Shown piece by piece: positions 28,905 to 32,013 of a DNA stretch of 64,000 bases. Source of the stretch: Escherichia coli (GTDB lineage Bacteria > Pseudomonadota > Gammaproteobacteria > Enterobacterales > Enterobacteriaceae); NCBI RefSeq assembly GCF_003334785.1, contig NZ_QOWV01000012.1. The stretch is one strand, 5' to 3'. Below the pieces are notes generated by a model. That model made no database searches and was not told the DNA's origin. It saw only the letters and a program-made list of their open reading frames with translations. Position 1 is the stretch's first letter. Every line of letters starts with the position of its first letter. Position numbers and translations under genes: made by a program.

Positions 28905-29413
<509 letters not shown>

Positions 29414-29414
29414 G

Positions 29415-30278
29415 TCACAAATACAGCGCCGGAAATATCAACCGGCCCACCCCGCGCACCTTTAATGCATCAGCCAACGGCTCAACGTCTTCCGGCGTGG
29501 CGCTCGCCCAGCTTTGCGCCTCGCCATACACGCCGTGGGCATGAAACGCGTTCAGGCGTACCGGAACATCGCCAAGTCCCTTGATAAACGCCGCCAGTTC
29601 TTCGATGTGTTGCAAATAATCCACCTGGCCAGGGATTACCAGCAAACGCAGTTCCGCCAGCTTGCCGCGCTCTGCCAGCAAACAGATGCTGCGCTTAATC
29701 TGCTGATTATCGCGTCCGGTTAATTGTTGATGACATTCGCTACCCCATGCTTTGAGATCGAGCATTGCGCCGTCACACACCGGGAGTAATTTTTCCCAGC
29801 CGGTTTCGCTCAACATGCCGTTACTGTCCACCAGACAGGTGAGATGGCGCAGTTGCGGATCGTTTTTGATAGCAGTAAACAGCGCCACTACAAACGGCAG
29901 TTGGGTCGTGGCTTCGCCGCCGCTTACCGTTATCCCTTCAATAAACAGCACCGCTTTGCGGACATGGCTAAGCACTTCGTCCACGCTCATGGATTGCGCC
30001 ATCGGCGTGGCATGTTGCGGACACCTCTTCAGGCAGGTATCACACTGCTCGCAGACCGCAGCGTTCCACACCACTTTGCCGTCAACAATCTGCAACGCCT
30101 GATGCGGACACTGTGGCACGCACTCTCCGCAATGATTACAGCGCCCCATCGTCCACGGATTGTGACAGTTTTTGCAGCGCAGATTGCAGCCCTGCAAAAA
30201 CAGAGCCAGACGACTGCCTGGCCCGTCAACGCAGGAGAAGGGGATAATCTTACTGACTAAAGCGCATCTGCTGTTCAT
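29415..30278 (-). CDS. yjjW: glycyl-radical enzyme activating enzyme (radical SAM, two auxiliary ferredoxin-like 4Fe-4S motifs)
   Basis: 287-aa ORF with CNLRCKNC (CX3CX2C radical SAM) plus [11 protein letters not shown] and [11 protein letters not shown] clusters. Confidence 0.9.
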
Positions 30279-31800
30279 GGCTTATCACGCGCGGCTGGCG
30301 TTCCAGAATACGAGTGTTGCGTGCGGCTTCTTCGCCCAGCCAGGTGGTGTTGGTGCGTGAACCTTCGGCGCGATATTTTTCTAAATCCGACAAACGCACC
30401 ATATAACCGGTAACGCGAACCAGATCGTTACCGCTGACATTGGCGGTAAATTCACGCATTCCGGCTTTAAAGGCACCGAGGCAAAGCTGTACCAGCGCCT
30501 GCGGATTACGTTTGATGGTTTCGTCGAGCGTCAGAATGTCGCTGATGCCGGAATAATAATAAGCATGATGCGGGGCGACAGTTTGCAGATGGGTGATCGG
30601 ATCTGGCTCATCGCCATAGGGTAAACGCGCGCCCGGCGTGGTGCCGATATCGGAACTGATCCCCGACTGTGCGTGTAACATGGCGCGTTTTTGCCAGCCA
30701 TATTTCACGGGGGTATTGGCGACAAACTCCGCCAGTTGCGCGCTGATGCGATAACCCACTTCATTTGCGGCGGCTTCTTTACCGTAGCGCGCGGCAATCC
30801 CTTCTTTCTCACACAGCAAGTTAACCGCTTCCGCCAGCCCATACATGCCAAACATTGGCACAAAACGTTCAGGGTTAATCAGCCCTTCTTTCACCAGGAA
30901 GCTATTCTCAAAGAAGTGTGATTGTTGATAGAGGAATTCACACCGCGCATCGATGATGGCGATCTGCTGCTGGCAGTAGTGCGGTAGAGTGCGCGTAAAG
31001 AAGTCATCCAGCGATTCGCTGCGCTCGGCAATGGCTTTCAGGTTAAGGCGTACCAGCGTGCTGCCACCACCCGCCAGCGGCAGTGAGTTGTAACAGCTCA
31101 CAATCCCGTAGCCCCCTTTTGTGAAAATTTTATCATGCACCGGACCGTTGGCGATGTGCGGTTTGCTACATTCACAGATGTTCTTCGCCACTTCCAGCAG
31201 TAGGTCATCAGGGGTGATTTCAGGATCGTAGATAAAGGTCAGGTTCGGTGAAACCTGCTTCAACTCTGCGTCTGCACGTAAGATTGCACGGGTAATGGGC
31301 GAATCAGACGGGCCGATATTGGCGTGCATAAAGGCGTCTGGCAGGGTTCTGTCGAGGTAACGCCAGAAACGTTTTATTCGAATATCGATCTCGTCTTGTG
31401 TTAGAATTCTAACATACGGTTGCAACAACGCATCCAGTTGCCCCAGGTAGACCGGCATCGATGTGACCGACGGTACGTGGTGGTAAAGAATGGTCAGCAG
31501 AGAGAGTGCGTCATCAAGATCTTTCGCGCCTTCCAGCTCCAGCCATTCGGAACCGTTCGCCAGAAAACGGGCGTAATCGGGTAAGACATAGCGCGGTTTG
31601 TACGGCGCATGACCTTCAAACATATCGCAGATTACACCCTCATCCAGCGCACGGCGGGCTTCGGCAGGCAGCTGCGGATAAGGCAGATTGTTTTCTGCTT
31701 CAAGTGCCAGAAAATGGCGCTTCTGCTCCGGGCTAAGCACTGGGCTGGTGACAATTTGCTGGCAACGTTGTTGCAGTGCATTTTCATCAGAAGTGGGCAT
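30250..31800 (-). CDS. yjjI: putative glycyl-radical enzyme YjjI (DUF3029), substrate unknown
   Basis: 516-aa ORF; C-terminal RVTGYMVRL matches glycyl-radical signature RV[ST]G[YF]; overlaps downstream activase gene yjjW by 29 nt. Confidence 0.88.
31120..31135. promoter_or_regulatory. Candidate DeoR operator OE
   Basis: TGTGAAAATTTTATCA (12/16 match to TGTTAGAATTCTAACA) lying 279 bp upstream of O1, matching the reported OE spacing; inside yjjI coding sequence. Confidence 0.5.
31399..31414. promoter_or_regulatory. DeoR operator O1 (deoP1)
   Basis: Perfect 16-bp palindrome TGTTAGAATTCTAACA, exactly 599 bp upstream of the second site, as known for deoP1/deoP2; inside yjjI coding sequence. Confidence 0.8.
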
Positions 31801-31889
31801 CTTCTTTTCCTTTTATGCCGAAGGTGATGCGCCATTGTAAGAAGTTTCGTGATGTTCACTTTGATCCTGATGCGTTTGCCACCACTGAC

Positions 31890-31990
31890 GCATTCATTTG
31901 AAAGTGAATTATTTGAACCAGATCGCATTACAGTGATGCAAACTTGTAAGTAGATTTCCTTAATTGTGATGTATATCGAAGTGTGTTGCG
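31890..31990 (+). promoter_or_regulatory. deoP2 region with CRP/CytR-type sites
   Basis: TGTGA-containing half sites (AATTGTGATGTATATCGAAGTGTG, CAGTGATGCA) just upstream of O2; assignment from known deoP2 architecture, positions approximate. Confidence 0.45.
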
Positions 31991-31997
31991 GAGTAGA

Positions 31998-32013
31998 TGT
32001 TAGAATACTAACA
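31998..32013. promoter_or_regulatory. DeoR operator O2 (deoP2)
   Basis: TGTTAGAATACTAACA, near-perfect palindrome about 45 bp upstream of deoC ATG. Confidence 0.8.

Follow-up and report, generated by a model that had tools for sequence, protein, structure and literature searches.

YjjI and YjjW of Escherichia coli: structural placement of a minimal glycyl-radical enzyme and its activase, with a possible role in anaerobic nucleoside catabolism

What do the adjacent genes yjjI and yjjW do in Escherichia coli? They were studied here in a 64,000-nt stretch of contig NZ_QOWV01000012.1 (assembly GCF_003334785.1), referred to below as the window. A previous sequence-only reading of this DNA interpreted them as a glycyl-radical enzyme (GRE) and its activase, acting on a substrate that has not been established, and our analysis supports this interpretation. 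Beyond it, we consider it probable on balance that the locus encodes a two-gene GRE system with a barrel related to the anaerobic ribonucleotide reductase NrdD, which is activated by FNR and serves anaerobic nucleoside catabolism. The gene coordinates of the sequence-only reading (a yjjI of 516 codons overlapping yjjW by 29 nt) were confirmed and coincide with the RefSeq boundaries. RefSeq names the products “YjjI family glycine radical enzyme” and “YjjW family glycine radical enzyme activase”; in the MG1655 record, yjjI is still named as a DUF3029 protein. Of 5426 complete E. coli genomes, 5423 contain the 3.1-kb region of the two genes at a coverage of ≥80%. From this and from the RefSeq names it follows that the pair is real, belongs to the chromosomal core genome and is already catalogued, so that its description as something other than a new insertion holds. 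It is a known family, named in NCBIfam, Pfam and RefSeq, and an orphan in terms of function: our literature search, which covered 8 million papers, returned no biochemical or functional study of YjjI or YjjW. To our knowledge, YjjI is the last E. coli GRE without an assigned function.

Identity of the enzyme and its activase

The profile searches proposed by the sequence-only reading placed both proteins in their expected families. YjjI matches TIGR04040 with 788.2 bits (cutoff 498.3) over positions 1–497 of the 497-position profile, as well as the Pfam “YjjI-like” family PF11230 with 732 bits, while YjjW reaches 398.1 bits against TIGR04041 (cutoff 250.2). The only further Pfam signal in YjjI is a sub-threshold one to NRDD (PF13597, E-value = 0.61). 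The glycyl-radical motif RVTGYMVRL is indeed present, although the wording that YjjI “ends with” it is loose, as it lies 51 residues before the C-terminus. Given the amino acid composition of YjjI, a match to RV[ST]G[YF] is expected by chance 8.6e-4 times per protein. Conservation of the motif across orthologs had been left as a check, and all 154 full-length homologs, 79 distant and 75 gammaproteobacterial, have R[VI][TS]GY. The Cys-containing motif [AV]SC[YF]N is kept in 78 of the 79 distant and in all 75 gammaproteobacterial sequences. In 58 dereplicated sequences, seven residues are 100% conserved (C236, G465, R462, E305, G83, G120, and G418), C236 being the sole invariant Cys of the family. 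A further group reaches ≥93% conservation in each subfamily (E62, R70, Y71, D123, D150, H159, N186, K213, S235, N238, R251, E324, H376, Q378, D384, and R392), with S235 and N238 at 97% each. Since the same polar residues are conserved in both subfamilies, they point to one shared active site, whose many basic residues would be compatible with an anionic substrate. The family is small: a search of 1.8 billion representatives yielded no more than 542 clusters at 50% identity. About 25 of the 542 are full-length, all of 490–530 aa and without fusions, and a member is encoded in at least 591 species genomes.

Concerning YjjW, the radical S-adenosylmethionine (radical-SAM) motif CNLRCKNC and the two ferredoxin-like Cys clusters described earlier are present, and Pfam assigns Radical_SAM and Fer4 dicluster domains. 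The comparison of these clusters with activases of the pyruvate formate-lyase (PFL) type stands only in part. YjjW is a GRE activase, but ferredoxin inserts with two clusters are typically seen in GRE activases other than those of PFL, and PflA has none. The insert is predicted to hold two auxiliary [4Fe-4S] clusters. The next-best NCBIfam models for YjjW are activases of hydroxyproline dehydratase, sulfopropanediol dehydratase, PFL, and choline lyase, and by these scores it is closest to the HypD-, HpsH-, and CutD-type activases. Models of NrdG, the activase of NrdD, reach only 47–63 bits, far below their cutoffs, compared to 123–141 bits for those of the PFL-activase type; the closest solved structure is PflA (E-value = 3e-19).

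The two genes stay together wherever enough sequence was available in Gammaproteobacteria (80 of 80 loci) and in 26 of the 31 distant lineages. The latter set combines a metagenome scan of the distant subfamily (80 loci), chosen after two distant members had been found in the midst of nucleoside genes, with seven earlier contexts, lineages being defined at 70% YjjI identity. The overlap of the two reading frames probably reflects translational coupling. Two architectures of YjjW were found, as the insert occurs in E. coli and 18 distant lineages, whereas a short form lacks it in 7 of 26. Examples of the short form, of about 236–250 aa, were located at L137:8608-9318, L146:11497-12228, L173:11496-12212, and L085:9557-10309. 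The existence of seven lineages with an insert-less YjjW suggests that the auxiliary clusters are dispensable for YjjI activation. Taken together, the assignment of yjjI-yjjW as a GRE and activase pair is secure, short of experiment.

Predicted structure and place in the superfamily

The AlphaFold2 model of YjjI (pLDDT 93.3, pTM 0.92, from a 71-sequence alignment) contains the GRE-like ten-stranded barrel whose presence the sequence-only reading had proposed to verify. Foldseek searches of the model against the PDB returned GREs only, with class III ribonucleotide reductases (RNRs) ranking first (8p2s_B, E-value = 1.5e-17, TM-score 0.73), and some 440–455 of the 516 residues superpose at 2.5–2.9 Å. 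The matched solved chains count 637–869 aa, in agreement with the statement that YjjI is far shorter than classical GREs. According to the model, it is essentially a bare catalytic barrel without the peripheral elements of the 640–870-residue enzymes, and it is the smallest complete GRE among those matched. C236 is located at the tip of a β-hairpin (strands 231–234 and 238–241) and G465 at the tip of another (strands 460–464 and 466–469). The family profile aligns “YGIaS-C236-YN” with “YAIAC418-C419-VS” of PFL, and “vRvtG465Y” with “IRVSG734Y”. A candidate for the catalytic Cys opposite the Gly loop was thus found in C236, which is invariant and aligned with Cys419 of PFL. This profile gives marginal PFL matches among PDB sequences (E-value = 0.09–0.4), which served only for the loop alignment, and a single-sequence search of YjjI against PDB sequences gave chance matches only.

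Profile-profile comparison by hhalign matched YjjI 44–364 with residues 146–532 of E. coli NrdD (probability 92%, E-value = 5.5e-7), whereas PflB was reached with a probability of 34%. Both fold and profile therefore make NrdD, the class III RNR, the nearest relative of YjjI, a placement that is well supported.

Is YjjI then itself a ribonucleotide reductase? NrdD proteins are characterized by a Met (or Cys/Glu) reductant partner near the thiyl Cys and by a C-terminal Zn-binding Cys4 motif. In the hhalign alignment, the second Cys of NrdD (N174-C175, in β-strand 1) falls into a 2-residue deletion of YjjI, and Met382 is replaced by V234. YjjI also lacks the Zn ribbon, the ATP cone and the specificity-site region, C440 being the only Cys of its last 180 residues. 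In length it falls about 200 aa short of E. coli NrdD, and its activase is of the PFL/eliminase type and not of the NrdG type. Moreover, E. coli nrdD mutants fail to grow under strictly anaerobic conditions although they carry yjjI. The idea of an alternative minimal class III RNR draws on the NrdD-like fold and profile matches, on weak or precomputed Pfam NRDD matches and on a fold prediction of 2011, which was NrdD-like as well (PMC3228777). It is nevertheless highly improbable in view of the deletion at N174-C175, V234 in place of Met382, C236 as the sole invariant Cys, the missing Zn-ribbon Cys residues and ATP cone, an NRDD signal of E-value = 0.61 only and the PFL-activase-like partner. 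The second catalytic Cys is necessary in P. copri NrdD (PcNrdD C171, corresponding to C175 in E. coli) (PMC11226230). The identity as an RNR was consequently rejected.

The old label “pflB homolog” of H. influenzae HI0521 led to another proposal, namely a formate-lyase acting on pyruvate or other 2-ketoacids. It finds some backing in an EcoGene note (as quoted in PMC3228777) and in the weak profile alignment that spans both the Cys and the Gly loop. In YjjI, however, Ser235-Cys236 takes the position of the Cys-Cys pair, the hhalign probability with PflB is low and no focA- or pta-type partner lies near yjjI, which makes this proposal very unlikely too. PFL chemistry requires the adjacent pair Cys418-Cys419, and the PFL identity was rejected at this site. 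Likewise, the GRE 1,2-eliminases (diol dehydratases, CutC, HypD, and IslA) share a G-C-x-E motif, in which Glu acts as a general base two residues past the thiyl Cys. YjjI reads S-C-Y-N, with the 97% conserved N238 in place of Glu, and an eliminase of this kind was rejected as well. In addition, PFL-like GREs in general (PflB, PflD, YbiW, CutC, HypD, the glycerol and propanediol dehydratases, and IslA) have 760–870 aa and peripheral helices that are missing in YjjI.

It is thus well supported that YjjI is an RNR-lineage barrel stripped of the RNR reduction machinery. It constitutes a distinct GRE class, on the RNR side of the superfamily and with a PFL-type activase. The reaction is most likely non-reductive and dependent on a single Cys.

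Anaerobic control and gene neighborhoods

Upstream of yjjI, a probable FNR-dependent class II promoter was identified (Table 1). Its half-site GGATCAAA and the TACAAT -10 box are kept in 10 of 11 Enterobacterales, and the 21-nt spacing between them agrees with a class II FNR promoter. Upstream of yjjI the FNR palindrome is incomplete, only the half-site being conserved, and outside Enterobacterales no strong FNR box (≥8/10 matches) was detected in this position. A published FNR peak from chromatin immunoprecipitation (ChIP) presumably lies about 25 bp from the half-site, given the coordinate offset between genome versions that we assume. A scan of the locus for promoters and terminators gave nothing above the shuffled expectation. 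In the literature, yjjI is listed among the operons directly bound and activated by FNR, with a ChIP peak and FNR-dependent expression (Myers et al., PMC3688515), and it falls in the FNR-activated class of a study on the HU regulon (PMC2634741). In Yersinia intermedia it is induced 4.3-fold under anaerobiosis (PMC3792023). These reports and the conserved promoter indicate that the yjjI-yjjW operon is turned on anaerobically by FNR. In Haliovirga abyssi (Fusobacteriota), a cyclic-nucleotide-binding regulator of the CRP/FNR type (L092:8230-8901) is divergent from yjjI-yjjW, which echoes the FNR control of the E. coli gene.

Anaerobic expression has also tied yjjI to nitrogen metabolism. YjjI belongs to the core of a bicluster shared by several species, together with narG and with FNR and NarL-like motifs (PMC3228777), and a role in nitrate/nitrite metabolism has been predicted from this co-expression. 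Co-expression with the nar genes is accounted for by shared FNR control, and no nitrogen-metabolism gene recurs beside yjjI-yjjW in about 110 loci examined, so we regard this role as improbable.

The two genes stand back-to-back with the deo operon, as described before, being divergent from deoC across an intergenic gap of 257 nt. This divergent deoCABD arrangement is kept through Enterobacteriaceae, Hafnia, and Edwardsiella. The DeoR operator O1 of the deo operon, the perfect 16-nt palindrome TGTTAGAATTCTAACA, lies inside yjjI, 599 bp away from the intergenic O2 (31998-32013). Its place within the codons of yjjI stays constant from E. albertii to Hafnia and Edwardsiella, and the operator is missing wherever yjjI does not adjoin deoC; the codons concerned form a variable loop of YjjI. 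As a consequence of the position of O1, transcription from deoP1 should run antisense across the initial ~400 nt of yjjI. ChIP-seq in enterotoxigenic E. coli revealed one CRP peak inside yjjI and another in the yjjI/deoC intergenic region (PMC4287617), which fits deo regulatory sites that reach into yjjI. A further block, ATGAGATC...TTCAAAT.ATT (31905-31925), is conserved in Enterobacteriaceae about 110–125 nt upstream of the yjjI start (alignment A4, columns 10–35), and it may belong either to deoP2 control (CytR/CRP) or to yjjI.

An association with nucleoside genes extends beyond E. coli. In Gilliamella, one strand carries deoB-deoD-nupG (a nucleoside permease)-add-cpdB-cdd-deoA-(ushA)-yjjI-yjjW. 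Of the independent distant lineages, 27 have ≥6 kb of flanking sequence, and in 11 of these a strictly nucleoside-specific gene lies within 7 kb of YjjI-YjjW. Counting one locus per lineage, nucleoside-specific genes amount to 21 of 214 within 5 kb compared to 3 of 126 beyond (Fisher p = 0.008), and 18 of the 21 are on the yjjI strand. The neighbors that recur after YjjW are a BMP/PnrA-type ATP-binding cassette (ABC) transporter (7–8 lineages), a ribokinase-like kinase (6), a Rih ribonucleoside hydrolase (5), a DeoD-type phosphorylase (4), DeoC, DeoB, and Cdd (2 each), and DeoA (1). Specifically, L171 shows a single operon with gaps of ≤63 nt, DeoD-BMP-YjjI-YjjW-ABC-perm-perm-Cdd-DeoC-DeoB, and L137 another, YjjI-YjjW-Cdd-DeoA-DeoC-DeoB-DeoD. 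L098, with the order Rih-ARH-PfkB-PNP-AP enzyme-YjjI-YjjW-MFS-BMP, and L173, in which YjjI overlaps an upstream permease gene by 8 nt, are likewise plainly single operons. The GC content of these distant nucleoside loci ranges from 0.31 to 0.55, and therefore they represent diverse organisms. Nucleoside operons of the deo/BMP-ABC kind (DeoABCD, Cdd, Rih, RbsK, and PnrA-type components) thus hold or adjoin YjjI-YjjW not only in E. coli and Gilliamella but also in at least 11 of the distant lineages. A prediction had already put YjjI into a module of nucleoside and deoxyribonucleoside degradation (Hu et al., 2009). Our literature search found no radical enzyme in any described nucleoside catabolic pathway. 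M20-family amidohydrolases (ArgE/DapE-like, TIGR01891) and a LacI-family regulator (CytR/RbsR/UriR-like) were sporadically observed tightly beside YjjI-YjjW in some distant nucleoside operons (L146:6672-7931, L173:12252-13430, and L146:8759-9712).

Several observations weigh against a role in nucleoside catabolism. No nucleoside genes occur near yjjI-yjjW in 16 of the 27 distant lineages, nor in the loci of Vibrio, Aliivibrio, Shewanella, Photobacterium, Providencia, Proteus, Microbulbifer, Haliovirga, and an actinobacterial-type lineage. BMP-type ABC transporters are not exclusively nucleoside transporters, and the best NCBIfam match of those found here, to a “putative B6” transporter, stays below its cutoff. 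For nucleoside genes, the background frequency is an estimate and does not come from matched control loci. Finally, the synteny with deo in Enterobacterales may have been fixed merely by the P1/O1 DNA of deo inside yjjI.

These observations give room to a different explanation, in which YjjI is a genuine GRE with a substrate unrelated to nucleosides, its adjacency to deo reflects shared regulatory DNA and the operons of other phyla result from subfamily-specific recruitment. It is in keeping with O1 inside yjjI and with the unrelated neighbors in the 16 distant lineages and in most gammaproteobacterial lineages outside Enterobacterales and Orbales. Such neighbors comprise LysR, AraC, or CRP-type regulators, an RhtB/LysE-type exporter, the aldehyde dehydrogenase ExaC, and a major facilitator superfamily (MFS) transporter with GDPD. 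However, the same active-site residues recur across the subfamilies, which argues for one chemistry, while the nucleoside link is kept in at least four gene orders with an enrichment that falls with distance from yjjI. We therefore find this explanation doubtful, though by no means negligible.

In Vibrio, Aliivibrio, Shewanella, Photobacterium, Providencia, Xenophilus, and Proteus, no recurrent metabolic partner was seen among assorted housekeeping neighbors. A LysR-family regulator lies beside yjjW, usually convergent, in Vibrio, Aliivibrio, Photobacterium, Shewanella, and a relative (L070:10444-11400, L066:10807-11790, L080:10395-11318, L077:4034-4966, and L084:10466-11362). Just upstream of yjjI, Vibrio has an RhtB/LysE-type exporter, and Shewanella has the acetaldehyde dehydrogenase ExaC on the same strand.

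Phage and plasmid origins of yjjI-yjjW were considered and rejected. The matches in phage collections are chromosomal fragments filed as phage (H9-H12 being Salmonella or E. coli chromosomal contigs or 3–4-kb fragments), and the “plasmid” matches are chromosomes, chromids, or megaplasmids (among H13-H25, several PLSDB “plasmids” of 4–5 Mb are whole chromosomes). Such misfiled entries call for caution when these collections are cited as evidence of mobility. At 28910-29414, tandem 101-nt units resembling repetitive extragenic palindromes or bacterial interspersed mosaic elements (REP/BIME-like), 93–95% identical to each other, fill the convergent yjjV-yjjW intergenic region. This region is about one unit longer here than in MG1655 (516 nt vs. 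419 nt).

Table 1. Positions of the yjjI-yjjW features in the window, with their strand and basis.
Feature	Position	Strand	Details and basis
yjjW coding sequence	29415..30278	minus	287 aa; radical-SAM GRE activase; open reading frame (ORF), TIGR04041, Radical_SAM and Fer4, PflA match in the PDB
Ferredoxin-like insert of YjjW, two CX2CX2CX3C	30021..30140	minus	C47-C57 at 30108-30140; C76-C86 at 30021-30053
Radical-SAM motif C31-x3-C35-x2-C38 (CNLRCKNC) of YjjW	30165..30188	minus	Sequence and Pfam
DGPGSR, ahead of CNLRCKNC in YjjW	30210..30227	minus	Sequence
Overlap of yjjI 3' end and yjjW 5' end, 29 nt	30250..30278	minus	ORF coordinates and kept adjacency
yjjI coding sequence	30250..31800	minus	516 aa; minimal GRE of the YjjI family; ORF
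Glycyl-radical loop R462-V-T-G465-Y466	30403..30417 (G465 at 30406-30408)	minus	Hairpin in the model, alignment with IRVSG734Y of PFL, conservation
Cys finger loop S235-C236-Y237-N238	31087..31098 (C236 at 31093-31095)	minus	Predicted thiyl-radical Cys; hairpin in the model, alignment, conservation
DeoR operator O1 of the deo operon	31399..31414	.	Perfect 16-nt palindrome TGTTAGAATTCTAACA inside yjjI, codons V130-R-I-L-T134
Probable FNR-dependent class II promoter of yjjI	31834..31874	minus	Half-site GGATCAAA at 31860-31867, 21-nt spacer, TACAAT -10 box at 31834-31839

Proposed function and its significance

By homology with other GRE systems, the CX3CX2C [4Fe-4S] cluster of YjjW would cleave S-adenosylmethionine reductively, and in E. 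coli the two ferredoxin-type auxiliary clusters would supply electrons. The resulting 5'-deoxyadenosyl radical would abstract a hydrogen from Gly465 of YjjI, and at each turnover the glycyl radical would generate a thiyl radical by oxidizing Cys236 of the opposing finger loop. From the gene context, YjjI may act in anaerobic nucleoside catabolism, on a nucleoside or on one of its products. We hold this role with moderate confidence on the basis of at least four different gene orders, the confidence being lowered by the many lineages with unrelated neighbors and by the regulatory overlap in the enteric bacteria. The ribosyl moiety is favored as the site of reaction because the scaffold is RNR-derived, and one conceivable chemistry is a 2',3'-elimination of the RNR kind, with the reduction left out; this is a reasoned guess.

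More tentatively, YjjI could represent an unrecognized catabolic step, in which RNR-derived radical chemistry would be applied to the ribosyl part of imported nucleosides or to their pentose-phosphate products, with conservation from E. coli to gut anaerobes. If true, an RNR-like 2',3'-elimination would serve breakdown and not the synthesis of DNA precursors, the RNR lineage would have its first catabolic offshoot and the function of an uncharacterized E. coli GRE would be settled. What is added here is the structural placement of YjjI together with a testable nucleoside lead, since the nucleoside context narrows the substrate candidates to a short list of compounds. As the smallest complete GRE among those matched, YjjI is also a useful model for the minimal needs of a glycyl-radical scaffold. 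If confirmed, the proposed role would extend nucleoside catabolism, which is relevant to gut colonization, by a radical enzyme.

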